From an uncultured Nitrososphaeraceae archaeon (GTDB lineage: Archaea; Thermoproteota; Nitrososphaeria; Nitrososphaerales; Nitrososphaeraceae): DNA of 53,360 bases. The stretch covers positions 1 to 53,360 of the forward strand of contig CAVSMN010000002.1 in the NCBI GenBank assembly GCA_963729045.1. The letters are read 5' to 3'. Positions 852 through 28,605 of this stretch are shown piece after piece; position 1 is the stretch's first letter; each line of letters begins with the position of its first letter. The translations under genes and the position numbers were made by a program. A model generated the notes under the pieces. The model made no database searches. It was given only the letters and a program-made list of their open reading frames with translations, and was not told the DNA's origin.

Positions 852-869
852 GTTTCCCTACTTTCCCTT

Positions 870-1214
870 TTATTTTCCCGTTTTAATACTTATCCCAAGC
901 ACTCGTTTTGCCAGAGCCGCAATAGATTCCTCATGAATAGTGCCCTGCAACGCAGGCATAAAAATAACCAGTGGATCTATCGATGATTCAATTTTTGATC
1001 TCGTCAATTGAGACAGTGAATCTTGTACGAATTGGCTTGCTATTATTAGATTATATTTGTGAGAGGCGAAAAGATTTTCCATTTTTTTTACTGCCTCATT
1101 TTTGTCATTAACTGTAAATGTATCTTCAACACCCAACAACCTATAACCCATAACTATTTCTCTTTCTCCTATTACTGCAATAGATTTAATATTTTCTTTT
1201 TTCTTACTTGACAT
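870..1214 (-). CDS. atpF: A/V-type ATP synthase subunit F
   Basis: IAVIGEREIVMGYRLLGV motif, C-terminal KRVLGI, and position just before atpA. Confidence 0.92.
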   Translation of the reverse strand: MSSKKKENIKSIAVIGEREIVMGYRLLGVEDTFTVNDKNEAVKKMENLFASHKYNLIIASQFVQDSLSQLTRSKIESSIDPLVIFMPALQGTIHEESIAALAKRVLGISIKTGK

Positions 1215-1222
1215 CTTTTATC

Positions 1223-2291
1223 TTACTCCACAACCAACAAAGAGTTAATGCGTTCTGGCGTCAAATTATATCGCTTACCATATGCAATCCTTTTGATATT
1301 GTCCCATTCAAATTCAGCAGTTATGATAAAGTAAAAAATTGTGCCAATTGACAATGCGATATTCTTTAATTTTCTTACATAATGTTTGTTTATGTATTTA
1401 TCCATGGCAACTTCAAAATCAATAAGGTTATGTGTTTTCAAATAATTATCTAAAAGATCATCAAATTTTATATGTTCATTAATCCTGTTTACAAAATCTT
1501 CAACGCTGTTTGATGAAAAAATTTCCAATAATTTTTCAATCGGAACTTTTCCCTCTTCGATAAGATGTTTTTTGACAATATCTCTATCAAGATTCGAATC
1601 TTTTCCTTTTAGCAGGGTCAATATATTTTTCTTATCTATTTGAGTACGAAACAGATCTCTTGCTATTCCCTCGTCACCTTGGAAAAATTTGATACTTTCT
1701 AGCAGGTTTATGTAATAAAATGACAAAAGTTCAGTCATCATAGGGCTTATATCAGATGTCTTTTGATACGTATCTAGATTTTGAATCAATATAGTCCCGT
1801 ACTTGTACTTTACTAATTGATTAACAACGCCTTCTACTGTTGGCTGAGATAATATAATTTTCATCTCGTCATGTGGAATATTACCTGCAGTGATTCCGGC
1901 CGGAAAATTACGACTGGATACCAAGAATGGTTCTGTTTCTGTAATTGTGCGCCCTATGACTTTGGATGACAGAATGAGTTCAATGTTATGTATATCCCAC
2001 TTTGAGAAATAGGCTCGGATAGCTTGCTTCCCACTGAAAGGAGTAGACTTCAAGCGCAATCTTATTGACTTCCACTAAATGTCGATTAATTGCGACTTCT
2101 AACAGTTCAGGTGGGGAGTAAAGAGCAGCGGCCCGGTCAATTTCAGGTCCATACCATGTTGATTCCAACATCCGTGCAACTTCTCCAACATCCTCTGCCT
2201 TAACTAGACTCTGAATAAAATCAGGTGATAGGAAATTGGTTGAGATTGCCTGCAATCTTCCAAAAGAAGAGGAGTACGATGATGTAGTCAT
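1223..2291 (-). CDS. atpC: A/V-type ATP synthase subunit C (+1 frameshift near 2050)
   Basis: Overlapping ORFs 1986-2291 and 1223-2059 join as IALKSTPFSG. Motifs KWDIHNIELIL and EFEWDNIKRIAYGK; lies between E and F. Confidence 0.9.
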
Positions 2292-2295
2292 TTTG

Positions 2296-2856
2296 TCAAA
2301 TCATTTTTTCATAAAGAAAGTTCTTAATTTCGTCTTCATGATTTTCCAATAGCTCCTCAAAAGTAAGATCTATTTCTCTACTCTGTGATTTGTCTACGGC
2401 TACAATCCCTCCCATAGTAGATATGCTAGATCCTATTGTAACCTTCTTTTCCTTCAAGTACGGAACGTCAGATTCCCTACATTTTATGATAATGTCATCA
2501 CCAAGGTATCTTTTTGCATATAGCACCATGTCCTCCAATGTTTTTTTGTAATCGGCCTTTTTGGTATTATTCTTCAACTCCTGCTTTATGGAGTCCAATG
2601 CAGTACTCATAGTCATATTAATTGCATCAAATAGAATTTTTTTTGCTTCCAATCGTGCACTTTCAGTGATTCTCGCAAATTCTCTCTGAGATTTATTCTC
2701 AGCTTCATTTTCATATTTTTCTTTTATTTCTGTTAGTTTTTCGTTTTTTATTTGGGCTACTCTATTTTTTTTTTCATCCAATAAAGAATTAAGGATAGCT
2801 AATTCTTTCCTTTTTCTATCCTGTATTTCTTCTTCAAATGTATTTAGGGCTGACAT
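2296..2856 (-). CDS. atpE: A/V-type ATP synthase subunit E
   Basis: Coiled-coil N-half and C-terminal MGGIVA...IDLTFEELL; operon position. Confidence 0.9.
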   Translation of the reverse strand: MSALNTFEEEIQDRKRKELAILNSLLDEKKNRVAQIKNEKLTEIKEKYENEAENKSQREFARITESARLEAKKILFDAINMTMSTALDSIKQELKNNTKKADYKKTLEDMVLYAKRYLGDDIIIKCRESDVPYLKEKKVTIGSSISTMGGIVAVDKSQSREIDLTFEELLENHEDEIKNFLYEKMI

Positions 2857-2872
2857 TTGATTTTTCTTAATC

Positions 2873-3214
2873 TTATAGTATTCCTAGTAATAGGATAATA
2901 CCAAGGACGAAACCAATGATCCATAGAGTTTCAGGGATTACGAAGAAGAATAGAACCTGACCAAATTTTTCAGGTTTTTCTGCAATTATACCCATACCGG
3001 CTGCACCGATTCCTTGTTGGGCATTTCCAGTTCCTATCAATCCTCCTGCTATAGCAATTGCAGCAGCAATAGCTACTAAGGATTTATTTAAACCGGCATC
3101 TCCAGTCGCGTTTTCTTGTGCAAAAGCTTGGGGGGTCAAGAGCGTAAAAGCCAACAATGCAGCGCCTGCTATTACAGGTATCATAAACAACTTTGAATAA
3201 CGAGATTGTTTCAT
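2873..3214 (-). CDS. atpK: A/V-type ATP synthase proteolipid subunit K (c), single hairpin with signal peptide
   Basis: GIGAAGMGIIAEKPEKFG loop, ion-binding IPET, and a signal peptide ending AFA. Confidence 0.93.
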   Translation of the reverse strand: MKQSRYSKLFMIPVIAGAALLAFTLLTPQAFAQENATGDAGLNKSLVAIAAAIAIAGGLIGTGNAQQGIGAAGMGIIAEKPEKFGQVLFFFVIPETLWIIGFVLGIILLLGIL

Positions 3215-3237
3215 TAATAATTAAAGACCTGCGGTGG

Positions 3238-3256
3238 CATATTAATAGGTTTTTTT
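3238..3256 (-). promoter_or_regulatory. Probable BRE/TATA promoter of the atp operon
   Basis: Minus strand AAAAAAACC-TATTAATA lies about 25-33 nt upstream of the atpK ATG, consistent with a near-leaderless transcript. Confidence 0.5.
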
Positions 3257-3764
3257 AAAATAATCCAAAATTCTTTGAGTTTTGTTAGATTATGTAATTA
3301 TACATACTAAATTTCTGAAATTTGTGAATTTAATGGTTCTAATATTTAGATTGAGGTGAAACTAAAATGAAAGTAAATTTCGGTCTTTACAAAAGGAGGT
3401 GAGCAAAGGTAAAATTATATCAAATTGATCTCAATTTCCAGATAATACCAATATTATATCCTTATGAAAAACTATCAGCAAAGATACTACTTTGAAACGG
3501 ATATCAGCTTTGATAATAAGAAAGATAGTCCCACGAAGGTATTTGTATCGAAAGTCATAAATCAATAGATCTGAAAAAGCCCCTATTCAGATGATTAAGG
3601 TATTAAAATCATTGTCACATTTAGTCAATTCTTTATTTAAGCCAAACCCGGTGAAAAATCATCAATTTTGGTCTGAAAGAAATTATCCTCGAAGTTTCGC
3701 GTTAGGCAAAATATTGCTAAATAAATTGATTTGTATAAAATAATCTTTTATTAAATAACTTGAC

Positions 3765-4703
3765 TTGATAATTTATAGAACGATCTTGTTAAGAAGTATC
3801 CTCGGGCTAATCATCCTATCAATTATTAGACGGAATGAACATGACATTGTGAATGTATATGATACATTCTCAAATCTAATGAGAATTGCTACTGGAGGGA
3901 GGCTACTAAATTTTGGATACTGGACAAAGGATATCACAAGCCCACTCCAAGCACAGATACAACTTACAAAATTATTTGGAATTTACGGATCTTTTGATAC
4001 CGCTCAAACACTATTAGATGTAGGAAGTGGTTTCTCCATTCCGGCACTACATTGGATTCATAGTTATTCTAATCTCAAAATATATTGCTTAAACATTAGT
4101 CTAAAACAACTAAAAAGTGCAAATTCTGACATGGGCAGAATTCAACATTCAAAAGATGCCAACTTAAACCTAAACTCGACTGGAAATATTGGTAATAGAA
4201 TATTTCACATTAATTCAACTTCAACATCAATGCCGATTAGAAATGAGAGTGTGGACAGGATAGCTGCATTTGAATCAGCGCAGCATTTTAAGCCGATCGC
4301 CCAATTTATACATGAATCAAAACGTATCCTAAAGAATTCAGGACAGCTTATTATGGCTATGCCAGTCATAACCAATAAATCAGATCTAATGCCATTTTCC
4401 AAAAGTTATAACCTCGGAATACTTGCAGTAACGTGGGCCTCTGAACATTATAGCGTTAACATGTTGGAATCCTTGTTACTTAAGGATGACTTTGAATTAT
4501 CAAATATAGAGTATATCGGAGGGAAGATCTATGGACCATTGGCCGAATTCTATATACAAAATCGCGATAGATTAAAGTCTGAAATAACCAAAGAATACCC
4601 CAAGTTTCTTGAAATAATTCTTTATAAATCCATGGTAAAGATGAAGATGGAATCTGACAGAAATTTTATTGATTATGTTTTAATAAAGGCCACAAAGAGA
4701 TAA
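3765..4703 (+). CDS. Class I SAM-dependent methyltransferase (sterol/tocopherol/EryG-like) with hydrophobic N-terminus
   Basis: LLNFGYW, LLDVGSG (motif I), VDRIAAFESAQHF and RILKNSG. Confidence 0.85.
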   Translation: MIIYRTILLRSILGLIILSIIRRNEHDIVNVYDTFSNLMRIATGGRLLNFGYWTKDITSPLQAQIQLTKLFGIYGSFDTAQTLLDVGSGFSIPALHWIHSYSNLKIYCLNISLKQLKSANSDMGRIQHSKDANLNLNSTGNIGNRIFHINSTSTSMPIRNESVDRIAAFESAQHFKPIAQFIHESKRILKNSGQLIMAMPVITNKSDLMPFSKSYNLGILAVTWASEHYSVNMLESLLLKDDFELSNIEYIGGKIYGPLAEFYIQNRDRLKSEITKEYPKFLEIILYKSMVKMKMESDRNFIDYVLIKATKR

Positions 4704-5002
4704 AGAATTTCAAACCAATGTTATCGTAATTAGCAAAATTGACACCCTAATTGGAGAAGAATTGGGTCGAAATTACAAAATTATCTTTCAAAAATTAATC
4801 AAAAAAACCAGAAGTTAGTAAATATCCCTGAAATACTAGCACTATGTAAAAAGAAGGCAAGCCAGGACGAACCTGAATGTGCAAATTAATATCACATTCC
4901 TGACCTTGATAGTCAGTGATAATAAATCAACATGCCTATTCTAAATTCTCAGCAAGTATAACTTCAAATAAACTTGTAGATAATATCAAATAGAAGTTAA
5001 TT

Positions 5003-5948
5003 TTGGCCCATTCAAGATCTGATTCATGTATATCGGTATCCCAGTTAAAAAAAAAATACGGTGATAAGACTGCGCTAGATGGGGTATCTTTCGAGGTTAA
5101 TTACGGGAAGGTTTTTGGATTCTTGGGTCCAAATGGTGCTGGTAAAAGTACAACTATAAAAATCCTCACAACTCTACTATTACCTTCATCTGGAAATGTA
5201 AAGATTTTTGGTTTGGATGTTAACAAATCTTCCTCAGCGATCAGGAAGAGAATAGGAGTTGTATCTCAACAACCTAGCTCAGAGGCAAACCTAACCGTGG
5301 AAAGGGCTATGGACTTGTATGGATTAATGTGGGGAATAGAACGAACCAAAAGGAAAGAGAAAATCACTGAAATAATTAATTCATTTGATCTGCAAGAAAT
5401 TAGAAATGTTAAAAATGACGAATTGTCAATTGGCCAAAAAAGACGAGGTACAAGTTGCTAGAGAATTCATTCATGAAATGGACCTCTTGTTTCTAGACGA
5501 ACCTACGGTTGGACTGGACCCTACAGCTCGTAGAGTGTTACTAGATTATATAAAAAACCAAGTGAAATCAGGACTTACCGTATTTTTTACAACTCACATT
5601 ATGGAGGAGGCTGAGTATTTGTGTGACAATATAGCGATCATTAATAGAGGCAAAATAATCGCCTTTGATACCCCTTTAGGCCTGAAAAAAAAATATGGTA
5701 AAGAAAACATAATCCAAATCCAGGTAAAGGAAAAGATTTCTGAGTTAATATTGAAATTGGCATCAAACGTTTCGCCTAATTCCCAAATTATTAAGGATGG
5801 GGAAAATGGCTTGAAAATAACCTCAATAGATCCCCAGAACACCTTAACAAAATTAATTGAAAACTTTACACTAAAAGGGATAAAAATAATTAATGTGTCA
5901 ATTAGTTCGCCCTCGTTGGAAGATGTGTTTTTGACAATGGTAAAATAA
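5003..5948 (+). CDS. ABC-2 exporter ATP-binding subunit, DrrA-like (+1 frameshift near 5447)
   Basis: GPNGAGKST, LSIGQKRR(VQVARE) after repair, LFLDEPTVGLD, TTH and C-terminal PSLEDVFL. Confidence 0.92.
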
Positions 5949-5963
5949 ATGGAATGTTATTGG

Positions 5964-6759
5964 CTAGACCTTAATCCTCAACATAGAAACTGCAGCAACA
6001 GAGAAAGCAACTATATGCTAGAATAGTAATTATGATTACTTCAAGGTTAACAAAGTCTGATACTTGAGCGTAGACTCCGGCACGGGTTATGTCGACTATG
6101 TAGGTCAACGGATTCATATAGAAAGCTGTTTTCAGAGGTTCAGGAATGCCTTCTGCCGGGTAAAAGGTTGTACTTGCAAAAGCGAAAAATAGGAAAATGC
6201 CGTTGCTTATCACATTGAATCCTTCACTACTCTTCAACCTTGTTGAAATTATAACGGTAAACGATCCAAAAAAGATCGCCCCTATGATAATGGCATACAG
6301 AGTATACGGTATGCTCCATAAAGTAGGGTGGGCACTCCCAAGTACTGTAGGAAGTCCAATTATCAAGATTAATACGGCACTTGTCAACCCCATTAGCATG
6401 ATCGTTACCAAATTACTAAATATGTATTGGACCTTGGTAAAGGGCATTACCAATATTTGTTGGAACATACCATTCCTCTTATCGGTCCAAATAATACTTC
6501 CGGCTACCGTACTGCTATTCATTACATTGAACCCAATCATCCCGACAGCTAAAAATGACGGATAACTAACTAAAATATCCCCCACTCGTATCCCTTGATT
6601 TCCCAGCAACGCAGAATAAGCATATCCAGATATGAAAATATAAAAAATTGGAAATATAATCTGCCAGATTAGGAAGACTTTATCAATAGATGCGATTAAA
6701 TTTCTATAAGTCAATACAAGAATTTCAGTAATCATCATCCATAGACCGGAGTGATTCAT
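5964..6759 (-). CDS. ABC-2 type permease (+1 frameshift near 6015; repaired end IVAFSVAAVSMLRIKV*)
   Basis: Six TM segments, with motifs DKRNGMFQQILVMP, STTFYP and NPLTYIVD. Confidence 0.9.
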
Positions 6760-7103
6760 TTATAATCTTAATTCATGATTTAATCCAAACTAGGTAGAGT
6801 TTTGAAATGCGTTTGATAAGTCACATAGTTTTATTCTTTTGAATAAATCTTGATGATTGTGAGGTTTTTCATGTTTTCTAGCCTCAAAAGCCACAAAAAA
6901 CTTTGCAGATTCTTGTAAGATAATCACATTTATTATAATAAAAAAATAGCATGGTTATTTCAAAAGGTGAATACATGAGTTAAGAAAATAAATTATTTTC
7001 AATTTATTCGCCCAATAAATGGATTGAATTTCATAATTGAGAGTAAAATCATTATTTAAATAACGTCTAATTTTATTTTAGACTATGTCTACATCAACAC
7101 AAA

Positions 7104-7718
7104 ATGAGTCACCAAAAGATATTGCACATCCCTGAAAACAAAGATGAGCAAAAACAATTAACGAATTTAAAACAATCTAAATTTACAGAGTTAACAAGTT
7201 GGCTTCAAAGTTGGGGGTATAAGGTCGTAGACAAATCTGATAATGTTAATGTCGAAGGGATAGAATTTCAAGCAGAGATAACACCTCAAGTTCCATACTC
7301 CTCCGGATTAAGCACCCCTTTTTATTTGGAATTTCAGGACGATTTAAGCGATGGATTCATCTTGAGAACAACATTTGAACTTGACAAAAATATAGAAATA
7401 CATTTAAACACCCAATCTAGGGCAAGAGAAATTGAACTAACCTATATTGAAATAAATCAAATGATACTACCTATGAAGGTTTCTATTATAAGGGATCATC
7501 CTTTTATTAAATTATACAAAGTGGTTTTTACCAATGGGCTAGATAAGCAATATTTTTTGGATTGCATAACTGATTTGATGAATTCGATGTCATTAATAAT
7601 TGGCAAGTGGGATGAAAAGTATTACAGTGTTCCCCCTAAGGAAACCCTAAGGAAACCAAAGGAGAAAAAGGAAAAAAAAATTGATGACTTAGAATTAGAG
7701 GAAATACTAAATGGTTGA
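7104..7718 (+). CDS. Hypothetical protein, DUF2299/YbjN-like; paralog of 29086-29571 and 36537-37001
   Basis: Long ORF sharing the pattern WL..(W/Y/S)G/N(Y/F)...E(F/Y).A....(L/F)E....DGF(I/L)LR. Confidence 0.65.
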   Translation: MSHQKILHIPENKDEQKQLTNLKQSKFTELTSWLQSWGYKVVDKSDNVNVEGIEFQAEITPQVPYSSGLSTPFYLEFQDDLSDGFILRTTFELDKNIEIHLNTQSRAREIELTYIEINQMILPMKVSIIRDHPFIKLYKVVFTNGLDKQYFLDCITDLMNSMSLIIGKWDEKYYSVPPKETLRKPKEKKEKKIDDLELEEILNG

Positions 7719-8048
7719 AAGGTTGGCAACCCCAATCTCCATTTCATTCAGATAATCCCAAATTTTGAGGTCATATTTCGTTAAATAGTCTTCCTATTGG
7801 ATGTTATCCATAGTTATAATTAGTTTAAAATGGATAGATTACTTTTTTTGAAAATCCGGGCATCATGCAGGTATTTATTTCTCCACGGAACCCAACAACA
7901 AGTTTCAAGTATTATCCGGCCATCCATGGGATCCAACGATTGGTATTCGAAGTGTTAGTTGGAATTTATTTATAGACCATGATTGAATTAAATAACAAGT
8001 TTAATAAATAATAGGATAGAGATAATTCTAATAAGCTGATTTGGAAAA

Positions 8049-8444
8049 ATGGATCATTATGAAATATTAGGGATTGCTAGTAACGCTTCGTCAAGAGAAA
8101 TAACGTTTGCTTATAGAAGGTTAGCTTTGCAATACCATCCAGATCGAAATAAAACTCCTCTTGCAAATGATATGATGTTAAGGATTAACACTTCTTATAG
8201 TATACTTTCCGACCCAAACAAGAGAAGAGAATACGATGCGTCTAGAAATAGAACCGAAATTCAATACGCAAAGTACGATTCTAAAGATAAAACAGATATT
8301 TTCAATGAATCATTTGCTAAAAAAGGTAAAAAAGCATCAAATAGCTCGTTTAGAAAAAAATACATCAAGTATGGGCTTATCGCACTGCTAACCTTAAAAT
8401 TTGTAATTTTAGAACTTAGAAAATTGATGCGACGAATATTCTAA
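8049..8444 (+). CDS. J-domain protein with C-terminal hydrophobic anchor
   Basis: DHYEILGI...AYRRLALQYHPDRN...YSILSDP.KRREYD, then YGLIALLTLKFVIL. Confidence 0.92.
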   Translation: MDHYEILGIASNASSREITFAYRRLALQYHPDRNKTPLANDMMLRINTSYSILSDPNKRREYDASRNRTEIQYAKYDSKDKTDIFNESFAKKGKKASNSSFRKKYIKYGLIALLTLKFVILELRKLMRRIF

Positions 8445-8862
8445 AGTTGATGACAAGATATCAAAAGTTGATGCTTGGGTTCCAATATGAGATAGCCGAG
8501 AAGTGGTATATTTAGGCATAAAGGGTTAATTAAAACTCGGGTTGATTGCAGCTTTAGATAATCAATAATATAGTTTGCAATCTTCCTCTGTGTTTATCTG
8601 AATCCATACTTACTGTCAAACCAATTTACTGACTTGATATCAGATAATTATACATCTATGACCATACCAAATGTAATGGCCATGAATGCTGCTCTTAGAT
8701 CGGGATAAGATATCACTTTTTCATTGTTCGATTCGTAAACTGATTGTAAGTTCATATAGGAAAAATATTTTTAGAATTTATAAAATTAAAGTGCGCTCAA
8801 TTATTTAGATTGCTTAGTCGTATCAATAAAAAGTGCTGTTTTTTGAGCAATTAAAAGGAGGT

Positions 8863-10568
8863 TTATTGTTTAGTTATGGTGGGTAAAATATTAGTTGCAA
8901 TATCCTCCAAGTACATCTGTATATGGGGTTCTATATTCCAGATTTTCTCACTCTCAAACAAATGCCCGTAACGTTGAGAACTCCCCATCAATTCCCTTTT
9001 CCCTAATTTATCTAAGATAGCTACTCTTGACACTGGTCTCACTGAATCCATTCTTCCTAGCGAGAGAATCTAAAAGATTGTGGATTCCTGAGCCATGTTG
9101 AGCTGCCTCCTTAATCCTATATGCAATTTCCTTCGGAATCCCCAATTTTTCAGCTAGTCTACGATGAACTCTTTTTCCTAAGTTGTCATATAAATCAATA
9201 CCCCCATTTTGGATATTTAGTCTCGGGTCGATTCTCAATACAGTATCAATTAAGTGGGGATCAAGAAATGGTTCTCGCAATTCTACGCTCTGTGACATAG
9301 TTATCTTATCTTCCCTCTCAAGTGTTTCCTTGTATAATAACTTCACATCCTTAATCATGTACTCTAGTATCTTGTCATATCCATATTTTTTGTACAATCT
9401 TAGAATACCATGAATAGCCGCCAAAAATCTCATCGGCGCCCTGACCTGTAAGCATGACCCTAATTCCTTGCTCCCGTGCTAGTTTTACTGCCGCATAAAT
9501 TGGGATTGCAACCTCAACTTGACCCATATTATCATCTTCAATCACATTTATGATCTCAGGTATCATTTTTTCAACGTCATTTTCGGACAATTGATTAATC
9601 TCCAAATGAAGATCCAGTTTTTCTGCTATATCTATAGAATTTGTAATATCATTTGAATTCTTAATTCCAGATGTATAACAAATGACATCAGGAACCATTT
9701 GTTTTGCCAAGTATGCAACGATAACACTATCAATTCCACCAGAAAAGACAATACCTATTCGGCTGAAATCCCTTACCCGTTTTTCAACAGATTGGATTAA
9801 AGCATCATTGTAGGCATCCAGAGCAGAATCAATATCTTTATAGGTTATTGGATATTTAGTCCGAATTGACTTACTGGTATTGACCGTTATAGGGTGCAAA
9901 GATGTATCGTAAGTATGCTCGTTTCCTGTTTTAGAAATAGCCAAGGCATATCCCGGTAATAGCCTTTCTATCTTGCTAAACATATTGATATTCCATAAGG
10001 CTTTCTTTTCTGATCCAAATGCGATAAATCGGTCATTTTCACCATAATAAATTTGCCTTACCCCGATACCATCTCTCACTAGGATGATATTGCCAGTTGA
10101 TTGTTCTCGTATGGCTAAAACATAAATTCCGTCAAGTTGAAAAACGGTCCTTTTTACTGCCTCTAACAAATTACCTTTTGTTTTCTCATAATGATCCTCT
10201 ATCAGATGTATGACAACTTCACTGTCAGTAGAGGTGGTAAATTTATGACGGCCTTCAAGACTTTTCCTCAGTTCTCTATAATTATAAATCTCCCCATTGT
10301 GTTCCAAAACCAGTTTTTTGTCACAGCTTATAAAAGGCTGTGAACCACATGACCCACCAACTATTGCTAATCGAGAGTGTCCGAGTACGTTGTATGCATT
10401 GGCCTGTGAAAAAAATAATTTATCAAATGTATTTGAGTATACTATCTCATCTTCGGTAGCCAATCCAACTCCGTCAGGTCCTCTATTTTTCATACATGTT
10501 AACATTTTTTCAATTAACGGTGCTACGTTCTCTCCTTTCTTACTTAATATTCCTACAATTCCACACAT
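8863..10568 (-). CDS. asnB: Asparagine synthase B-family glutamine amidotransferase (two +1 frameshifts, near 9388 and 9013)
   Basis: MCGIVG Ntn nucleophile, RGPDG, HSRLAIV, HNGEIYNY, FSGGIDS, LTGQGADEIFGGY and LREPFLD. Confidence 0.93.
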
Positions 10569-10654
10569 TTTAAAAAATTCCTAAACAATTACTATTGTAT
10601 AACAAGATATAATAATAACCTCATTACTCAAATTTAAGTATTACACTTTATATA

Positions 10655-11309
10655 CTACATATAATTTAGCACTTCAATAAGATCAGGGTTGTGAATAATG
10701 TTTTTACTTTGTTTGATGATATCTTGGTCTTTTGGCATAAAAACAATGCCCAAGCCAGCTTGCTTTATCATGCATATATCTCCCCTCGTGTCCCCGATGG
10801 CAATTGTATCTCTAATTTGAACACCATACTTTGTAGCATAATGATTCAAGTGAAATCTGTTTGCAAATGGATATGTTACACGGACATCCAATTTTCTCCC
10901 ACCCAAGAGGCATGACGATTTCACCGGTGATAATCCCGTCTTTAACAATTAATTCATTGGCCGAACAAAAATCCAAATCAAGTTTTTTTGCAACAACTCG
11001 AGCCGCAATGCTGTAACTATCGGTTATAATGCCTGTCTTATACCCATTTTTCCTAAACCATGTCACAATTTTATCTGCGTTATGCATTATTGGGATAGAA
11101 TTAATTGAATCAACTATCTCACTCTCTTTGATACCCTTGAGAAGGGAGGCTATTAATCGGGTTTTCTGATATCCCAAAAGAGAGGGGTCAGATTGAATCG
11201 AACTTACTTTGTCGGTTAACTTAAATTTTCTAGAAATTACTTCTATTAATCTTCCTTGAATCAAAGTGCCATCCATGTCGAATGCTACAAGTTTTGGTTT
11301 CACAGTCAT
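10655..11309 (-). CDS. HAD-superfamily phosphatase, SerB-like (+1 frameshift near 10858); candidate mannosyl-3-phosphoglycerate phosphatase
   Basis: FDMDGTL (motif I), IITDSY, K of motif III in ISICKRFHL after repair, and AIGDTRGDICMI (motif IV). Confidence 0.88.
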
Positions 11310-11406
11310 AGTCGGTAATAAATAATATAATGAGAAGGGTATTATTATGTGCTCACCCATAAGTTTTGTGGAATAGGTATTATTATAAGCTAAATTATAA
11401 TTAGGT

Positions 11407-12609
11407 ATGAAACTTGATTTCCCCCCTAGATTTTCTGAGAGGATAGGAGCTATTAGTCTCCACGCGGTGCAGAAAATTTATGAATTGGATTCAGGAAAGT
11501 CTCCCGAGTTTCACGGCGGACATAGGACTATCCGTGCCTTTGACCATGATGAGCTTTCCAGCATCTTTAGAGATCTCGCGATTGTTATTCCAATAAAAAA
11601 TGAAAGATTAAGGTTAATAGAAGGGGTTTTGAGTGGAATTCCTAATGAATGCATGGTTGTTATTGTATCGAATAGTCAGATTTCCCCTGTAAATAGATTT
11701 TCAATGGAGGTTGAAATGATCAAGCAATATTCTCAATTTGCAGATAAGAAAATAATAATAATTCATCAAGGTGATCCGGATCTTGCAAAGATATTTGAGG
11801 AGGTAAAATATACATCGATTTTAGACTCAAAAAAACAGATTCGCGATGGAAAAGCTGAAGGTATGATAGTAGGCATTTTAATGGCTAAGATGCATAATAA
11901 AAAGTATGTCGGCTTTATAGATAGTGACAATTATTTTCCAGGAGCGGTAAATGAATATTGTAAGATATATGCCGTCGGATTTGGGATGGCATCTACCCCT
12001 TACAGCAATATCAGGATTTCGTGGCTATACAAACCAAAAATAAGGAATAACATATTGAAATTCCCTAAATGGGGACGAACATCAGAAGTGACTAATAAGT
12101 ATTTGAACGCATTGTTATCTTATATTACCGGATTTGAAACTGATATTATAAAGACTGGGAATTCAGGGGAGCATGCCCTATCGATGTCACTAGCAGAAAA
12201 TTTGAATTATTCAAGTGGCTACTCTATCGAACCATATGAATTTATTAATATATTAGAAAAATTTGGGGGATTGCTTCCTACAGATTCACCCGATATCGTT
12301 GAAAAAGGGGTAGAGATATTTCAGATAGAAACTAGGAACCCACATTTTCACGAAGAGAAAGGTAAGGATCATTTGACTGAAATGCTTCAGGCATCGCTAC
12401 TATCAATTAGTAATAGTAAAGTTTGTAACATGGAACTCGCAAAAGAAATAAAAGAACATTTACTCAGATTAGAAACTTTATATAAAAAAGATAAGAGCGG
12501 TAAGACAGATGCAAAAAAATATTTCATTATGGATCCGATAAAAACAATTCCTATTGATAAATTCGGAGAATTGGTAAAAAAGAATGTAAAGACATTCCAC
12601 AAAATTTAG
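11407..12609 (+). CDS. mpgS: Mannosyl-3-phosphoglycerate synthase (GT55)
   Basis: AIVIPIKNE..LIEGVLSGIP, IRDGKAEGM, YVGFIDSDNYFPGAVNEY, WGRTSEVTN, TGNSGEHA and IETRNPHFHEEKG. Confidence 0.95.
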   Translation: MKLDFPPRFSERIGAISLHAVQKIYELDSGKSPEFHGGHRTIRAFDHDELSSIFRDLAIVIPIKNERLRLIEGVLSGIPNECMVVIVSNSQISPVNRFSMEVEMIKQYSQFADKKIIIIHQGDPDLAKIFEEVKYTSILDSKKQIRDGKAEGMIVGILMAKMHNKKYVGFIDSDNYFPGAVNEYCKIYAVGFGMASTPYSNIRISWLYKPKIRNNILKFPKWGRTSEVTNKYLNALLSYITGFETDIIKTGNSGEHALSMSLAENLNYSSGYSIEPYEFINILEKFGGLLPTDSPDIVEKGVEIFQIETRNPHFHEEKGKDHLTEMLQASLLSISNSKVCNMELAKEIKEHLLRLETLYKKDKSGKTDAKKYFIMDPIKTIPIDKFGELVKKNVKTFHKI

Positions 12610-13133
12610 AATAGAAATTTTGGATATCCTATTATAACCGTGTTATACTACGATAATCATAAATTCAATGACAGGATCCTCTAGTTTAACATTTTTGTTA
12701 AAAAACCTAAAGACTAATCAGTGTGTCAATAGAATTTAGTGTCACTTATCCTTCTAGTACGCAATTTTATAAGAAACATTACTCATATTTCATATGACTA
12801 GATGAGATTAGTAAGCCAGTTGTTTTAAAAAAAATTAAATTCCATCGAAAATTGTAGTTTCTTTTGAAGATATCCCCTCGTGCATGGGTATGAGGAAATG
12901 ACAAAATGTTATCATATGATATAGATTAATCATCAAGTTAAAATTTGGTTTTTAGACCAAGTAGAAATTCGGATTTGATCAATTTCCATTACTGCAGCCT
13001 GTTTGCAGGAGGTTACTCTGACATTCAAAATGATTTTAGTTTAACTTGACATGTCTCTAAACACACAAGAATGAATTTTCCTTTCCTCTTCATTTCGAAA
13101 CTAAAATGGTCTTAATGATGTAGTAAGATTTGA

Positions 13134-13805
13134 ATGAAAGATAAAGGTAAGATTATTTTGGTATCCCGATTATCGACTTCAGGAGTAGGAAAGGGTCTGA
13201 GAAATTTACAATTTGTCATAGTGCCTGGAATAGTAATAGGCATAATTGGTGGAATTCTACTTTTTTTTGCCGCATATAATTATTATCCTCAGAAGAATGT
13301 GAATATCAATTTAAACGGCAAATGCTATGAATTTTTGGATGAGGCTTATCAAAAGTACCAAGATTTAGTATCTAACAGAGAAAGGGAATTGTTAAAGTTG
13401 CAGATAGCGTCCCTAGAGGGGTCAAATTCATTTGTTCCTATTATATTCAGTGGTTCAAGTGATGACGTAGACTACATAATAGACAAATTTGACATCAAAG
13501 TAACAGAAATACAGACATTAGGTGACCAGAACACACAAGTCGATAAGATGATCATAAAGGGTGTAATCAACAATACGATTCTTGAACAAATATTGGATAA
13601 TATTTCTGATAATATTACTGATACTACTGCGAACTCGATGCCCAAAATTGGCATCTTACCCAATAGCGGAATTTCAGTGTCCGAGAGTGCAAAAATTAGC
13701 GATAATATGGATCAATTTATGATTAGCGGGCTAAAGGAAATTATATCTGAGAAAAATGGGGTAAAGGAAACAGAATGCAGAAGCACAATAATCTATAATG
13801 ATTGA
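13134..13805 (+). CDS. Hypothetical single-TM protein with extracellular domain
   Basis: 223-aa ORF with TM FVIVPGIVIGIIGGILLFFAAY and two Cys. Confidence 0.75.
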   Translation: MKDKGKIILVSRLSTSGVGKGLRNLQFVIVPGIVIGIIGGILLFFAAYNYYPQKNVNINLNGKCYEFLDEAYQKYQDLVSNRERELLKLQIASLEGSNSFVPIIFSGSSDDVDYIIDKFDIKVTEIQTLGDQNTQVDKMIIKGVINNTILEQILDNISDNITDTTANSMPKIGILPNSGISVSESAKISDNMDQFMISGLKEIISEKNGVKETECRSTIIYND

Positions 13806-14081
13806 TGAATTCCAAAATGCAAATTCCTGTGTTTATTCTTTCAATCATGAATAAAACCCAACTCTCTCTAATACAATAGAGTATATGAGATTACAAGATT
13901 TGTCAATATTTAGGAAATTAAGACGCGGGCCATTTTATTTTTTTATGTAAAATGAAAATGCTGTGTGTTACAGGTCAACATGTCAGTGATTGGAAAAGAT
14001 CCATTAGACTGCCCTCCTTTATTTATTCAAGAAAATTTGATGTAATGAATCTTGGATTTATTCAGATATGCAAAAAAAGAT

Positions 14082-15097
14082 CTATGAATCATTCATGGTT
14101 ATTAAAACTACATGCCAATTGGAGTCCTTTATTTTAATAGACTTCCAAAACATCAACTTCTGATCATCCAAATTATCTTTGATAAATACGGGTCTAGGTT
14201 CATTTGCGAATTCATTAATTAGATTAAAATGATCAAATGTCTCAAGTTTTACCTGATAGGTCATATTACTATCTGAGCTCAACGATAATGTATTATCAAG
14301 GCTACTAGAATAAGATGGTCCAATCTTTGATTTATTGGTATCTAAAAGTTCAGACCCATTATGATCGATCAGGATGAACCGATTTTCATTGTTTAGAGAC
14401 AGACCCTCCAACAAATCTGCTAAAGATTTCAAATTTATTATCCCGACCCAGTATCCACTCAGAGAGCTTGAACCGGTTTGGATATTTGAATCGCTCTTAT
14501 AGAGAGTAAACTGGGACCGCAACAGCTATTGCAGGAGCATTTATAGAAGCAGACAAGAAAATTGAACTAATGTAGGTTTGATTATTTTTGACAACTCCTT
14601 TATACCATTCTCGATCAGCAAAATTAATTCTTGGAAGTTGCTCTTGATCCCTATATGGTTCTCCCATATAGATATCTCCATTTGGTAGTACAAAGAAAAT
14701 GCTTGCAATATCTTTGTTTCGTTGGAGGATATCTTTAGCTAGATTTCTTTTGTCCAAATCTAAAGTAGAATGGATACCGTTATGATCACTGCTAACATTC
14801 TTTAGAAATGGCACATTCTTAAGTGATTCATCTCTGCTTGAAATTTCAAGAGTTTCAACGGTATTAGATATTTTGTCGTGTATCAAATCGGCAAACAGGA
14901 TAAGCATTGTAAACTTATCAGTTTGGTTTACTGGTAGTCTTTGAAAATAATTTGAAAGTTGGCTGCTGTTATCAAATTCCTAGAGCGTTAATAGGTTTGG
15001 CCATTAAAGAGGAAAGGCACATGGCAATGATAAACGTCGTAATGATAAAAAAATATTGTCTAACGATGAGAGTTAGAAGAGGAATTTGTTGAGTCAT
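14082..15097 (-). CDS. Secreted stand-alone dCache domain protein (+1 frameshifts near 14980 and 14502)
   Basis: ATG at 15097 begins a signal peptide (MTQQIPLL...PINA). Cache motifs FFVLPNGDIY, NFADREWYKG, AIAVAVPVY, FILIDHNG and WHVVL. Confidence 0.8.
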
Positions 15098-15361
15098 TTG
15101 CTATAATCAGTGAGGACAATGTCAAAGTTGATATTATTTGTTATGTTTGAATTTTAAGAAATTTTAAAAGATTTTGTAACCTTTCATGAAATGTTGTGAT
15201 AATGGCATACTCAACTGATTTCTCGATTTGCAAAGTAATTCAAACTATTTATAGATATGATAAAACTAAATCTGCAGTATTTTCTTTATGTATCAGGATT
15301 TGTTCCTAATGAAATAAAACGTTTAAGCATACATGCAAAAGGAAGTTAACCAAGAAAAAAA

Positions 15362-16448
15362 TTATTGTGGATTTGACTCTAAGTATGTAGCCGAATCGTC
15401 AAGCAGTTTGTTGATATCAGCGATATTTTGCTTTATCTCATCTATGGATGCATTTCCGTCGATCTGTTCACGGAGCTTCTCCCTCAGTAAAGCCTCACCC
15501 TTATCGGCTAGTGCTTTGCCAATTGGTGCTTCTAAATACTCAAAGTTATCCAAGTATGCAGCGGTGGCCAATTCTTTGGCTTTAATTTTATCATTTGACT
15601 CATATGCAGAGACAACTTCATTTAGCAATCCTCTGATTTTGTCTATATAGTCCTGTGATGTTGGATTGTTGCTGGCATTAGCGCTTGTAGAATTGTCATT
15701 AGTACCCAATTCATTGCTTATCCTCTCAATTATTTGATTAACAACAGCTTGGTCTCTAAGGTTCTGGAAAGAGTCTGTCAAATTTGCAAAATCAGACAAC
15801 AACGTCGTAATTACATGAGTATCATTTGAAATGTTTTCTGTGTTATTGAACAATGCACTAGCTCTATCTACAAATGCTGAACCATCCTGATATTCCAATT
15901 CCAATGTAATATTACCCCCTGTGACTCCCTCTTTGTATTCAGAAGCAGCAGTTTTTAATAGATCTTTTATAACACTAATTTTGTGCTCAGCAGTATTTAG
16001 TACGACTGCTGGTATAACCGTTGTTACCACATTATTGGACAAGTCTATTGAAGACTTGCCCTTGTTCTCAAATTCTGCTAATGTAGTCACTATTATTGGA
16101 AGCCAACCCGGCTAATTGATTCAAATCATTAAAATAGGTATCATTTAGATTCCTGTCGGCTGTAGATAATGGAATAGTTACAAGTGACAATACTTCTTCG
16201 ATTGGATGAAGAGTATGAGCTAAAGTTAATTCAGTATCATTGTGGAATTTATTAAACTCAGCCTTTTCAATATGGCCTATAATCTGTTCAATATTTGAAT
16301 GAAAACTAGTATAATCCGTCTGGTTTTGTTGTTCAGTACCATTGTTCTGACCCATTACCTGATTTGGTAAGGCGAAACCAAATATCGCGATCGTAACTAC
16401 TGCAGTAATTAATCCTAGTGTTAAATTATTGCTTTTATATGTATTCAC
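15362..16448 (-). CDS. Secreted helical putative iron-binding protein related to FTR1-associated extracellular domains (+1 frameshift near 16092)
   Basis: Signal peptide; His/Glu motifs IIGHIE, AHTLHPIEE, EYKEGV...EYQDGSAF and AYLDNFEYLE. Confidence 0.7.
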
Positions 16449-16488
16449 AATGAGAACCTTCCTTATAATATATTTATATGATTATTCA

Positions 16489-16506
16489 ATTCTCAAAAAT
16501 GAGAAT
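16489..16506. promoter_or_regulatory. Perfect 7-4-7 palindrome ATTCTCA-AAAA-TGAGAAT, candidate operator
   Basis: Lies directly upstream of the minus-strand TATA (about 16471-16479) of the iron-binding gene; an extra TGAGAA half-site sits next to the start codon. Confidence 0.5.
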
Positions 16507-16817
16507 GAAGAGGTGCTTTTGTTTCTTCTATAATTAATCATACAAATATCGTGCCCTTAACTGTGTTTAATCATTAGATTTATTTTTCAGCTACCTGTAG
16601 AAGTAGATGAAATTTGTGACTGTGCTAACGAGAATCAGCTCTGGAATGCAAAACCAGTAAGATTAATTACTCTGAATCTTCAAGGCCCAACCCTTTTTCT
16701 TTTTTTCTAGATTTTAGCACTTCTAGACATTTTATCATAAAGCATGTACGGTATAATGAAAGGTCGAATTACATCCATATAATATTTTGATGATTTTCCA
16801 TATACAATAATATCCAA

Positions 16818-18080
16818 ATGTCAAACCTTTTTAGAATTATGATTCTATTGTACTTGGATTTGTCTGGAGAAAAAATAACAACTATTGAGAACGTGCTGGT
16901 ACTTCAAGGGGGTGGATCACTTGGTGCTTTTGGATGTGGAGTGTACAAAGCATTAGTAAAACATCATCTTGATTTGGATTTGATTGCGGGGACTTCAATT
17001 GGTGGGATTAATGCGGCCATTATAGCAGGTAGTCGAAATAAAGATAGGACAGATCAAATATTAGAAGAATTCTGGATCGAGCTTTCTGAAAGTTTTGTTA
17101 ATAAAGATAAATTTTTTGGTTTTTCAAGTTCAAACCTAATGAAGCAGTTTTATGAAAATTTTGTCTATCCACTTCATAAGAATGACACGATCGCAAGTTA
17201 TGTAGAAATGAAGAAGGACCAACAGATTAAAATCAAACAACTTGAATCTTTCTACAGCTCTGCAGCGTTCGGAAATAAAAAATTTTTCAAACCTAGGTGG
17301 TTTCCGGAATATGCGATTTCAGACCCAGAGTACTTTACACCAATGAAATGGACCTATCTCTATGATCATCAACCACTGATCAAGACTTTGGAACGATATA
17401 TTGATTATGATAAGTTAAGACCAGGAGAAAATAGCAATCCTCGTCTAATACTGACCGCTGTTAGTGTTCTTGATTCTAAAGCTTTAATATTTGACAGTTT
17501 CAAGCAACAAATAGAGCCCAAGCATATCTTGGCTACCTCTGCTTATCCACTTTACAATTTTCCATGGATAGAAGTTGACAAAGGTGTTTTTGCCTGGGAT
17601 GGCGGCCTTTTGAGTAACACTCCACTTAGAGAAGTGCTTGACGCATCGCCGATCATGGATAAGAAGATATTTCTAGTAGAAAATTATCCAAAGGAGGTTG
17701 ACGCGTTGCCTGGTAATATAGCCGAAGTGCATCACAGGGCCAGAGACATTATGTTTTCAGACAAAACTGAACACAATATCAAAATGTCCGGGGTGATTAC
17801 GCGTTATTTGGACTTTATTGAAGAACTTTATCAAATTTTTGAAAATAATGCAGACAAATTACAATTAGACAAGAATACTTTAAGCAAAATTCGTCGTAAA
17901 TATAAGAAATACCATGAGGATCATGGGGCGGAAATTAAAGAAATCTATTATTTTTCACGCGATGAAATGTACCCTCATATCTTTGAAAATGCCGATTTCT
18001 CTCCTGATACCATCAAGGAATTAATAAGAGCAGGAGAGGACAAAGCTAATAAGGTCATACAAGATCATAAGCAGGAGTAA
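16818..18080 (+). CDS. Patatin-like phospholipase/esterase (true start possibly TTG near 16860)
   Basis: LVLQGGGSLGAF, GTSIG nucleophile elbow and WDGGLLSNTP. Confidence 0.92.
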   Translation: MSNLFRIMILLYLDLSGEKITTIENVLVLQGGGSLGAFGCGVYKALVKHHLDLDLIAGTSIGGINAAIIAGSRNKDRTDQILEEFWIELSESFVNKDKFFGFSSSNLMKQFYENFVYPLHKNDTIASYVEMKKDQQIKIKQLESFYSSAAFGNKKFFKPRWFPEYAISDPEYFTPMKWTYLYDHQPLIKTLERYIDYDKLRPGENSNPRLILTAVSVLDSKALIFDSFKQQIEPKHILATSAYPLYNFPWIEVDKGVFAWDGGLLSNTPLREVLDASPIMDKKIFLVENYPKEVDALPGNIAEVHHRARDIMFSDKTEHNIKMSGVITRYLDFIEELYQIFENNADKLQLDKNTLSKIRRKYKKYHEDHGAEIKEIYYFSRDEMYPHIFENADFSPDTIKELIRAGEDKANKVIQDHKQE

Positions 18081-18515
18081 ATACTTAAAGTGCTGTATGG
18101 TTTAAAAAGGATATTTGGTTCACTCAAAAGTATCGGTAAACTAAAAGTAATGAATATCATAAAAGAATGATTAAAGGACCAAATTTGACGGTCAACATAT
18201 AGGCTCATCGTCCCAAGATGAAGTCATCTGCTCATGACTTGCTCTACCCTGATCATTCTAAACGAAATCCAATCACCGGATGTTTGAAATAATTAAGTCG
18301 TCCTGATTGGTATCCAGAACCATTCCTAACCTAAAATATTTTTGTAATAAGGATTTTAGTTGTTGATGGGTATCTAAGGCGAGCATGATCCACCATTGGG
18401 AATAACCCTATAATCATTGGTGTTATTCGATTTATCTAGTACATGAATGGAAAAAGTATTATCAATTACAGGCCTTTTATTTTACTTGTATCGAATTACA
18501 CGTGTCAACAAAATA

Positions 18516-18734
18516 TCATAATGACATTGATCTATCAAAGCATTTGATAGCTTCCTCGAATTCATTCATCTGATATAAAGAATTTCCTTTCATATACCAT
18601 GAATTAAAGCTTTTCAATGAAGATAGAGCCAGAGATCTATCAAAGCATTTGATAGCTACCTCATATGATTTCCTTTTATATAATGATAATCCCATTATAT
18701 ACCAGTGATCTGCTAAACCACATCCTTCTGACAT
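18516..18734 (-). CDS. Small two-repeat TPR protein
   Basis: WY..G.SLY....YE.AIKCFDRS occurs twice with a 35-aa period. Confidence 0.8.
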   Translation of the reverse strand: MSEGCGLADHWYIMGLSLYKRKSYEVAIKCFDRSLALSSLKSFNSWYMKGNSLYQMNEFEEAIKCFDRSMSL

Positions 18735-19241
18735 AATCAATATTACATTCAAAATAGTCTTTTATAAAGATTTTGTTGAATATTGATTAATATTTGCTTT
18801 TATTGCATGAGAATCGCAAAACCTCTTTGATTGTTTAAAAGTGCATTACTGATATAGAAGAATTAGTAATATTTAATAAACAGAAAGACCGGTGCAAAAA
18901 AGATGATTGCCATATTAGGATTAATATCATTGCTGTGCTAAATAAGGGTGAATAAATGTTTACAATTGTAAATAATAGGACGAGTGATTGTATCCCTTTC
19001 CATTTTTGTTAACCATGGTAATACCATTTGAAAAATCTTCTTTGTATCTTTCGCTTTGAAATCAAAAATCCTAAAGGTCTTGAATTCTCATTCCCAAATA
19101 TGCTTCGCTTACCACCAATCAATTTCCCGAAAAAAATAGATTTTGGTATACTTGCTAATTCTCAAGAAATATCAGAATATCAGACCCCGGTCAATGGTTT
19201 TGAAATTCATGAATGAGCTAACAAGAGTCGCAGGTCTTTTA

Positions 19242-20831
19242 TTAGCAAACTATGTCATAAGCATCAGTAACTATTCTTTGATAGATTGAATTGTTCAGAT
19301 CTATTCGGTAATAATCTAATTTATCAGGATCATACTTTTGTACAATTTCAATAATTTCGCTTTTCTTTTTTCGTTGAAATATCACATCCCTGTGAGCATA
19401 ACCAGTGACATAACTATACTTATTCTTGATGGCTTCGCCTAAAAACTTTATCCTTAAGTAGTGACCACCGGTTCCGCCCCAATAACCTTCAAGGATGCTG
19501 ACCCCTTCCAGATACACAGTATTCATTGATCCCTTGTTCACATCGACTGTACCTGGGCGCAATTCATAATTTTCCAATGGACCGCCTTTTGCATAACCTA
19601 TTATATCACCATTCCTGTTGTTCATCCTTAGTGTTACCAGGATAGAAGATTCATCTGCGATTGTTTTTCTGAAATATTCTTCACTTTGCCGCATCAATGT
19701 GGAAACCCGACTGTTAATATCTAAAAGGATCTTCACAGTATCCTCATCCACTTTGCCATTTTGGCCTTCGGTAACAAATATCAATCTTGTACCTCTTTTG
19801 GAATCTTTTAATCCTAATTCTTTATTCCATGATTCCTTAAAGTACGCTACGTTATCATAAAAATTTTTCCTAAATTCAGTAGGTATATTTGACATAATAT
19901 AATCAAACATCTCCTTTTCTTCTACCATAAGGTTATCAAAAAATTTCACAGAGTTCTTATTAATCACAGAAGGATGCCATCCCAACGCATGAGCATTACG
20001 CCTTGCGATATCTCTTGCATGTTCATAATTCCCCAACGCATATCCGGCTATTCGCTCCGATACTGAAAGAAACCATCCTAAACTTCGAAAACGCTCCCTT
20101 GTTTTAATATCGTGTTGGGAAATTCCAGCTTCATCAAATAATTCATCAATCTTCCTAGTCGCATATTGCTCAATTTCCCCTTTGAACGGATAAGCAGTTC
20201 TATGAATCAGTATCATGACTAAATCGATATTCAGATTTGCATTATCAATAAATTCTCTAATTTTAGGATCGTTTCTAATGAAAAATTCGACAGAATCCTC
20301 ATTGGGTTTATCAAATTCCTTAAGAGGATCATAGTCATGAAACAGCGCAGCTACAAATAAATAAGTAGTTTCTTCTTGAGATATTTTGAAATTTTCCATT
20401 TTGTTAATCCCAGAAATCGATAAAAGCGTGAAGTAAACAGCTTCTAGTTCGTGTTGAATATTATGATAACCATAATAATCAGTGCCCAAACCTTTCTTTG
20501 AAAATTCAGATATTGTGTGACGTAGTATATCTTTTATCCATCTATCCTCAAAGCCCAACGATTTGCCCAAGTCTATAATATTATTCTTGAGGTTTGATTC
20601 GGCGGTTTGTCCTTTGTGAAATTGTAGCCACCAAGGAAATAATTTTATTCTATTATAGAATTCAAATCCAAATAGGGTTAGCCGCCCGGGCAACTTATCT
20701 GTCGACAATCCATTCTTATTGTTTAGATCATCCTTTTCACTATCAGATGTAAATATCGATGATCTAACCACATTTCTAGAATTAGAAATCCACGATATAA
20801 AATTTGCTTTTATACATGATGATTTTTGCAA
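19242..20831 (-). CDS. HD-domain phosphohydrolase fused to a C-terminal GNAT-like domain (start uncertain)
   Basis: YHNIQH and AALFHDYD; C-terminal IIGYAKG...VYLEGVSILEGYWGGTGGHYLR...KYSYVTG resembles the GNAT acyl-CoA loop. Confidence 0.78.
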   Translation of the reverse strand: MQKSSCIKANFISWISNSRNVVRSSIFTSDSEKDDLNNKNGLSTDKLPGRLTLFGFEFYNRIKLFPWWLQFHKGQTAESNLKNNIIDLGKSLGFEDRWIKDILRHTISEFSKKGLGTDYYGYHNIQHELEAVYFTLLSISGINKMENFKISQEETTYLFVAALFHDYDPLKEFDKPNEDSVEFFIRNDPKIREFIDNANLNIDLVMILIHRTAYPFKGEIEQYATRKIDELFDEAGISQHDIKTRERFRSLGWFLSVSERIAGYALGNYEHARDIARRNAHALGWHPSVINKNSVKFFDNLMVEEKEMFDYIMSNIPTEFRKNFYDNVAYFKESWNKELGLKDSKRGTRLIFVTEGQNGKVDEDTVKILLDINSRVSTLMRQSEEYFRKTIADESSILVTLRMNNRNGDIIGYAKGGPLENYELRPGTVDVNKGSMNTVYLEGVSILEGYWGGTGGHYLRIKFLGEAIKNKYSYVTGYAHRDVIFQRKKKSEIIEIVQKYDPDKLDYYRIDLNNSIYQRIVTDAYDIVC

Positions 20832-25006: not shown

Positions 25007-25022
25007 TCGTAGTGGGGCTATT

Positions 25023-28478: not shown

Positions 28479-28605
28479 TACATCCATAAGTCGTGTGTTA
28501 CATTGTAATGTGGTACGGACAGTGGCTGCATGCATCGGAAATAAGAGACTTGATGTGAAATTTTTAGACATTTATTTATAAACATCCTACGACTTCGGTT
28601 CCGAT

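Follow-up and report, generated by a model that had tools for sequence, protein, structure and literature searches.

We have identified a candidate three-gene compatible-solute module of Candidatus Nitrosocosmicus on a contig of an uncultured Nitrososphaeraceae archaeon, in which mpgS, the gene for mannosyl-3-phosphoglycerate synthase, is accompanied by genes for a HAD-IB phosphatase and an AsnB-like glutamine amidotransferase. The stretch analysed, referred to as the window, is the entire contig CAVSMN010000002.1 of GenBank assembly GCA_963729045.1 (53,360 nt), designated C2 here; the assembly comprises 22 contigs totalling 2.85 Mb, is rated as 87% complete and has approximately 33% G+C. As its family assignment suggests, MpgS would join GDP-mannose and 3-phosphoglycerate to form mannosyl-3-phosphoglycerate. 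The phosphatase, a putative paralogue of phosphoserine phosphatase (SerB) that would replace the Cof-type mannosyl-3-phosphoglycerate phosphatase (MpgP), is proposed, because its place beside mpgS is conserved and no canonical MpgP was found, to convert this intermediate to mannosylglycerate. Judging by gene context and active-site changes, the AsnB-like enzyme may then adenylate the glycerate moiety at its free carboxylate and transfer ammonia to that group from glutamine, yielding mannosylglyceramide, a neutral solute; alternatively, amidation could take place on the phosphorylated intermediate. Two of the genes are broken in frame as deposited, and the breaks are read here as assembly errors. 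We assign this reading as a whole a probability of about 0.5. We regard the AsnB-like enzyme as a strong candidate for the amidation, though not a proven one. A wider proposal, that its clade is the missing mannosylglyceramide synthase and that Nitrososphaeraceae soil ammonia oxidisers and several uncultured bacterial lineages accumulate the amide with a SerB-family phosphatase instead of MpgP, falls just short of even odds in our judgement.

The genes and spacers of the locus are as follows.

11407..12609, plus strand: mpgS, mannosyl-3-phosphoglycerate synthase of family GT55 (TIGR02460, PF09488); intact, 400 aa

11310..11406, no strand: divergent spacer of 97 bp with two exact GGTATTATTAT copies, which are probably TATA-type promoter elements serving mpgS and the HAD gene

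10655..11309, minus strand: HAD-IB (SerB-like) phosphatase, candidate mannosyl-3-phosphoglycerate phosphatase; one extra base at ~10857-10859 breaks the frame

10569..10654, no strand: spacer of 86 bp between the HAD and AsnB genes, containing the motif with one mismatch at 10609-10619 (minus strand)

8863..10568, minus strand: AsnB-like glutamine amidotransferase/adenylating synthetase, candidate mannosylglycerate amidating enzyme; frame broken twice

The three genes, both spacers and the doubled GGTATTATTAT are all present where the initial annotation had placed them; it had made no mention that both minus-strand genes are broken in frame. With the HAD start set at the Met of MTVKPKLVAFDMDG (11309), the divergent spacer to mpgS measures 97 bp. 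The AsnB-family gene begins at 10568 (MCGIVG), 86 bp beyond the HAD stop on the minus strand, and ends at 8863. The mpgS product matches TIGR02460 at full length (profile positions 3-382 of 383) with 583.7 bits, above the equivalog cut-off of 351.2, and PF09488 with 503 bits, and it shares 93-98% identity with same-genus orthologues.

Orthologues of the AsnB-like protein, defined by at least 44% identity over the length, were tallied in 121 genomes of the order; the code G000 denotes the source assembly, other G codes the compared genomes and L codes loci. They occur in 20 of the 121 genomes, all 20 among the 39 with mpgS, and in none of the 82 without mpgS, where only partial matches of about 30% identity are found; as genomes of one order are kin, these co-occurrence counts overstate independence. 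In 16 of the 20, AsnB and mpgS lie no more than 1 kb apart. The divergent AsnB-HAD / mpgS trio is present in all 11 same-genus (Nitrosocosmicus) loci whose flanks were long enough, including loci with MpgS identity as low as 67%. Elsewhere the order changes: G053, G115 and family f4 have a co-directional mpgS-HAD-AsnB arrangement, G074 and G122 have mpgS and AsnB but no HAD gene, and G034 has the order AsnB-mpgS-canonical MpgP. One same-genus genome, G003 (97% complete), has neither AsnB nor mpgS. The supposition that the trio is conserved together is thus borne out within the genus, and beyond it AsnB remains confined to mpgS genomes of the order, usually adjacent and in several gene orders, and is paired with mpgS in some bacteria. 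Asparaginyl-tRNA synthetase (AsnRS) scores above its cut-off in 81 of the 121 genomes, many of which lack this AsnB, and is found in G003 and in families that have no member of the AsnB clade (13 of 13 genomes in f7, 13 of 14 in f10 and 10 of 11 in f9). Because AsnRS is distributed in this way, the AsnB clade follows mpgS rather than the need for free asparagine. These tallies include one unpublished genome, G128, which has AsnRS and neither mpgS nor an AsnB orthologue; without it they become 0/81 and 80/120. One record with the trio, L083, is titled Nitrosopumilus sp. and is 88-97% identical in protein sequence to the Nitrosocosmicus relatives, so that its label is probably wrong.

The pairing extends beyond archaea. 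A scan of named genomes with an AsnB alignment yielded 80 loci, 15 of which have mpgS within the available flank: nine from ammonia-oxidising archaea (AOA), two from Verrucomicrobiota, one from Ignavibacteria, one from an unclassified bacterium and two from ANME-1. In the four bacteria mpgS directly follows AsnB, and in the two annotated ones a sodium:solute symporter (SSF) gene comes next after the pair (L101, 8915-10564, Verrucomicrobiia; L103, 4219-5862, Ignavibacteria). A quick maximum-likelihood tree of 89 rows was built from 71 of the 80 loci and 18 earlier sequences, nine loci with a recovered open reading frame (ORF) below 430 aa having been dropped. In this tree the proteins linked to mpgS group into a separate, supported clade of 39 rows, with a value of 98 in the SH-like approximate likelihood-ratio test (SH-aLRT); it unites the AOA, these bacteria and a Dehalococcoidia fragment, and mpgS lies within 6 kb in 28 of the 39. 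The 120 proteins listed in a first homologue search were all from AOA, and the source names of near-identical proteins assign the assembly to Candidatus Nitrosocosmicus. Among the homologues listed for the Ignavibacteria protein, the best 120 include Latescibacterota, Krumholzibacteriia, Verrucomicrobia, Calditrichaceae and Deltaproteobacteria. In the Protein Atlas only generic AsnB clusters were matched.

The phosphatase beside mpgS had been described as SerB-like rather than Cof-type, and profile searches agree. The two pieces in the window score 70.8 and 35.8 bits on the SerB model TIGR00338, below its cut-off of 144.15, and the intact orthologue of G004 reaches 109.5 bits on that model; the same orthologue passes the HAD-IB model TIGR01488 with 73.1 bits (cut-off 45). 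The catalytic motifs DxDxT and GDxxxD are readable in the translations as FDMDGT and GDTRGD. A true SerB is encoded elsewhere in G000 (C12:293479-294090, 158.7 bits against the same cut-off of 144.15). Against the MpgP models (Cof-type HAD-IIB, TIGR01486 and TIGR02461), the window gene gives only a partial match of 16 bits. In neither G000 nor four complete family genomes does a canonical MpgP score above the TIGR01486 cut-off of 164.75; the best matches have 26 bits (G000, at another locus) and 29.6 bits (the four genomes). By these scores the phosphatase is a SerB paralogue, neither the housekeeping SerB nor a Cof-type MpgP.

Its distribution follows mpgS. HAD orthologues occur in 32 of the 121 genomes of the order, 29 of which have mpgS. 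The gene directly adjoins mpgS in 18 genomes and lies 1.4 kb off in G084; it is next to mpgS even in four genomes without AsnB (G108, G041, G052 and G059). In family f9 it is distant from mpgS (356 kb in G032). Ten mpgS genomes have no HAD orthologue, and one of these, G034, has a canonical MpgP instead, its mpgS neighbour scoring 191 bits on TIGR01486. The replacement of MpgP by a HAD-IB phosphatase in the module is well supported.

A third phosphatase candidate was considered and rejected. In Nitrososphaeraceae genera without the HAD-IB gene, a protein of about 275 aa adjoins mpgS or AsnB (L066:3444-4253, L074:3255-4097, L076:3488-4315 and L065:7268-8137). The protein is of the multi-pass membrane type, contains a GCPTCAG motif, matches no Pfam or NCBIfam family and is 39-45% identical between genera.

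As deposited, the HAD gene is divided into two ORFs (10812..11360 and 10655..10948) and the AsnB gene into three (9375..10568, 9008..9433 and 8863..9051). Alignment with three close relatives places three 1-nt insertions near 10859, 9391 and 9017: a single extra base at ~10857-10859 in the phosphatase gene and, in AsnB, an extra A in the run 9386-9391 (A6 vs A5) and an extra T at ~9014-9017. The close relatives have intact proteins of 234 aa and 567 aa. Taken at face value, three frame-breaking insertions within 2.5 kb beside an intact mpgS could mean that the phosphatase and AsnB are true pseudogenes in this genome, and that the strain makes at most mannosylglycerate by way of another phosphatase. 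The broken pieces, however, keep 81-98% protein identity to the intact relatives (98, 95 and 81% for the AsnB pieces against the 567-aa G004 protein), and the breaks are not peculiar to this locus. Among 36 syntenic G004 ORFs of at least 150 aa, 33 have a window match of at least 60% identity; 8 of the 33, of unrelated function, are split between frames in the window, all of them in 1..25400 and none beyond. The comparison with G020 gives 6 of 31 ORFs split, in the same places. Frame breaks were placed near 610, 2060, 5400, 9017, 9391, 10859, 14500, 15000, 16090 and 25156, with none in 25400..53360, a pattern suggestive of single-base errors left uncorrected in one half of the contig.

Contigs from four public runs were aligned to the region, and every near-identical one that covers an insertion site, from a DNA library (X1) or an RNA library (X15), does so without the extra base; X2 and X6 leave the insertion sites uncovered. 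At 9014/9017 this holds for one contig each from X1 and X15, at 9386 at depths of 14.4/14.4 (X1) and 9.2/9.2 (X15), and at 10857 for three X1 contigs at a depth of 18.3/18.3. Each of the three genes is partly covered by contigs of X15, a metatranscriptome library, although as contigs these cannot show transcription. The absence of all three bases from these contigs again argues against pseudogenes, which we regard as highly improbable. The three insertions are most likely assembly errors near one contig end, so all three genes are probably intact in the organism. Users of the assembly should be aware that the first 25 kb of the contig probably contain many single-base errors.

The AsnB-like protein combines a GATase_7 domain (102.5 bits) with an Asn_synthase domain, and its MCGIVG start provides the N-terminal Cys nucleophile of class II glutaminases. 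On the AsnO model TIGR03104 it scores 146.4 bits, against a cut-off of 570.1. It was aligned to human asparagine synthetase (ASNS; approximately 116 bits against 6GQ3), and the numbering was checked against the residues named in the paper. Human Glu-364 corresponds to Gln-376, Asp-367 to Asp-379, Asp-400 to Thr-415, Arg-403 to Arg-418 and Lys-466 to Lys-486. Gln-376 and a Thr, Ser or Cys at 415 are found in 18 of 18 AOA orthologues, as is the invariant FSGGIDS of the PP-loop (SGGxDS), and Lys-486 is invariant in the clade alignment A2. The position of the catalytic Glu of asparagine synthetases is therefore taken by Gln; Glu-364, a residue that known asparagine synthetases conserve, is required for the activity of human ASNS, whose E364Q variant is inactive (PMC6748925). 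At the acidic pocket for the substrate amino group, Asp-367 is kept as Asp-379 and Asp-400 is replaced by Thr, Ser or Cys. Because Gln-376 and Thr/Ser/Cys-415 stand in place of Glu-364 and Asp-400, and the Cys-1 nucleophile, the SGGxDS loop and the equivalents of Asp-367, Arg-403 and Lys-466 are kept, the enzyme retains its glutaminase and adenylation parts and departs from asparagine synthetases at two substrate-side residues.

Several observations weigh against the proposed module. Besides the kinship of the sampled genomes, AsnB lies away from mpgS in 4 of the 20 genomes (on different contigs in G064, G099 and G132, and 9 kb off in G084), and three genomes of family f12 (G080, G088 and G096) have a HAD orthologue of 44-45% identity without mpgS. 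Rhodothermus turned up neither among the 80 scan loci nor among the best 120 homologues listed for the Ignavibacteria protein, which is no evidence of absence. The remaining points are the resemblance of the AsnB-like protein to asparagine synthetases, the wide spread of its Gln and, as the main result on this side, the behaviour of a sister clade.

The resemblance could mean that AsnB is an ordinary glutamine-dependent asparagine synthetase supplying AsnRS, brought near mpgS by stress co-regulation or block inheritance, with no connection in chemistry. Its first piece alone scores 280 bits on the asparagine-synthase equivalog TIGR01536, above the cut-off of 267. It is the only AsnB with both domains in G000, which also has AsnRS, an enzyme needing free asparagine. 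Cys-1, the PP-loop and the equivalents of Lys-466 and of Asp-367, which binds the aspartate alpha-amino group in the human model, are all retained. An ordinary synthetase would nevertheless have to be confined to mpgS genomes (20/20, and 0/82 without mpgS) in an order where most genomes with AsnRS do without it, and its linkage to mpgS would have to persist through three gene orders, an exchange of one phosphatase type for another and a transfer to bacteria. It would also carry naturally the E364Q change that abolishes asparagine synthesis in the human enzyme, and the GatB found in G000 makes Asn-tRNA possible without free asparagine. On balance we think this explanation distinctly unlikely.

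Next to the mpgS-linked clade in the tree stands a sister clade of 21 rows (SH-aLRT 100) with 38-42% identity. Its members sit beside a carbon-nitrogen hydrolase, usually together with transporters of the sugar-type ABC or sodium:solute kind, and MscS or CLC channels are encoded close by; mpgS was found in none of the 10 sister-clade genomes tested. Because these genomes have no mpgS, the wider AsnB group acts on something other than GT55-made mannosylglycerate. A Gln at the Glu-364 position likewise occurs in 83 of 98 near representatives with a readable motif (150 listed). Gln-376 had been considered as a marker of the mpgS-linked clade and was rejected on this count, since most near relatives have Gln too; it appears to mark a large AsnB-like subfamily, not the mpgS-linked clade alone. 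With AsnB-family enzymes known to amidate varied substrates, the window enzyme could act on a different carboxylate, whether that of some other solute, of a compound taken up from outside or of a sugar acid of the cell envelope; its link to mpgS would then reflect a shared stress regulon rather than successive steps. Against this, the mpgS-linked proteins form a clade of their own, AsnB is never found without mpgS in AOA, several lineages have AsnB between the two mannosylglycerate genes or directly beside them, and no other solute gene is common to these loci. We consider a different carboxylate unlikely, and amidation of mannosylglycerate remains our preferred reading. The sister-clade loci (L106-L111, L116, L117, L120, L122 and L124) come from Nitrospirota, Thermodesulfobacteriota, Scalinduaceae, Methanolliviera and Syntrophoarchaeum. 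In them, the carbon-nitrogen hydrolase and the transporter come after AsnB, and AsnB and the hydrolase look like a make-and-break pair for another amide solute.

Within the window, GGTATTATTAT has exactly two copies, at 11338-11348 and 11376-11386, where 0.06 would be expected; two were reached in 0 of 100 shuffles, and the motif is conserved in four close relatives (G004, G020, G012 and G017). The one-mismatch copy at 10609..10619 on the minus strand lies 41-51 nt upstream of the AsnB start. Allowing one mismatch, however, 11 copies are present in the window against 3.5 expected, and the interpretation of the repeat as a dedicated regulatory site was dropped. Because the motif with one mismatch is common across the window, we take it for a general element of promoter or TATA type. 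A scan for bacterial-type promoters and terminators performed no better than chance.

Nitrosocosmicus genomes carry one or two further mpgS paralogues of 57-63% identity. In the source assembly these are at G000:C22:1856-3031 and G000:C20:122786-123962 (L033 and L034), the C20 copy having an internal stop, and L035-L038 are their counterparts in relatives. The neighbours at the annotated loci, L033-L035, are Kelch-repeat proteins and glucose/sorbosone dehydrogenases, and L033 and L034 also have a GT2-GtrA (dolichyl-phosphate-mannose-synthase-like) gene. No HAD or AsnB match was found near the paralogues at any of the six loci.

To our knowledge, no enzyme has ever been assigned to the amidation of mannosylglycerate. 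The literature searched contained no assignment of an enzyme for mannosylglyceramide formation, only unrelated work in which mannosylglycerate and asparagine synthetase meet, and no published account of the AsnB-mpgS pairing. As far as excerpts of the AOA literature go, mannosylglycerate is predicted from MPGS, and one paper gives Nitrososphaerales a phosphatase gene, which one being unspecified; the same excerpts make no mention of an amide or of AsnB. Mannosylglyceramide is the neutral amide of mannosylglycerate; the excerpted text of PMC1224877 names Rhodothermus marinus alone as a producer and describes the amide as favoured at high salt. The route from mannosyl-3-phosphoglycerate through mannosylglycerate to mannosylglyceramide had been put forward in the initial annotation. 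Its conserved module, the tie of AsnB to mpgS and a phosphatase that is neither SerB nor MpgP stand; that the product is mannosylglyceramide is what we infer from them.

A defined candidate for the amidating enzyme is now at hand, with intact orthologues in cultured Nitrosocosmicus strains. If the proposal is true, a neutral N-containing amide so far known only from Rhodothermus would extend to Nitrososphaeraceae and uncultured bacteria, changing the view of osmotic and drought tolerance in dominant soil nitrifiers. It would also add a further case in which a phosphatase of one HAD subfamily replaces that of another in a solute pathway, and it would correct the automatic 'asparagine synthase' label of a widespread protein clade.

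The module resembles several known systems and departs from each. The two-step MpgS/MpgP pathway makes mannosylglycerate in Pyrococcus horikoshii, Thermus thermophilus and Rhodothermus marinus. The window shares with it the GT55 synthase followed by an adjacently encoded HAD-superfamily phosphatase, and G034 keeps the classical pair; unlike that pathway, the phosphatase here is HAD-IB (SerB-like, with a C1 cap) instead of Cof-type IIB, and a third gene, for the amidotransferase, is added. The phosphatase resembles SerB itself in its DxDxT and GDxxxD motifs and in matching the serB model from end to end, whereas its score lies below the SerB cut-off, the genome has a separate true SerB, and its distribution follows mpgS. 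The AsnB-like protein likewise shares with asparagine synthetase B and human ASNS (PDB 1CT9 and 6GQ3) the two-domain build, the Cys-1 glutaminase, the SGGxDS PP-loop and the Asp-367, Arg-403 and Lys-466 equivalents, and differs in having Gln for Glu-364 and Thr, Ser or Cys for Asp-400. The product predicted here is the same compound as the mannosylglyceramide of Rhodothermus marinus, a solute so far known only from Rhodothermus. In Sinorhizobium and Pseudomonas, the AsnO-Ngg pathway makes N-acetylglutaminylglutamine amide (NAGGN), and there too an AsnB-family amidotransferase in a solute operon completes an osmolyte by carboxylate amidation; the substrate of AsnO is a dipeptide, and the window AsnB, far below the AsnO model cut-off, is no AsnO. 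A solute operon finished by AsnB-family amidation is thus already known from NAGGN, and the substrate, the clade and the phosphatase proposed here are new variants of it.

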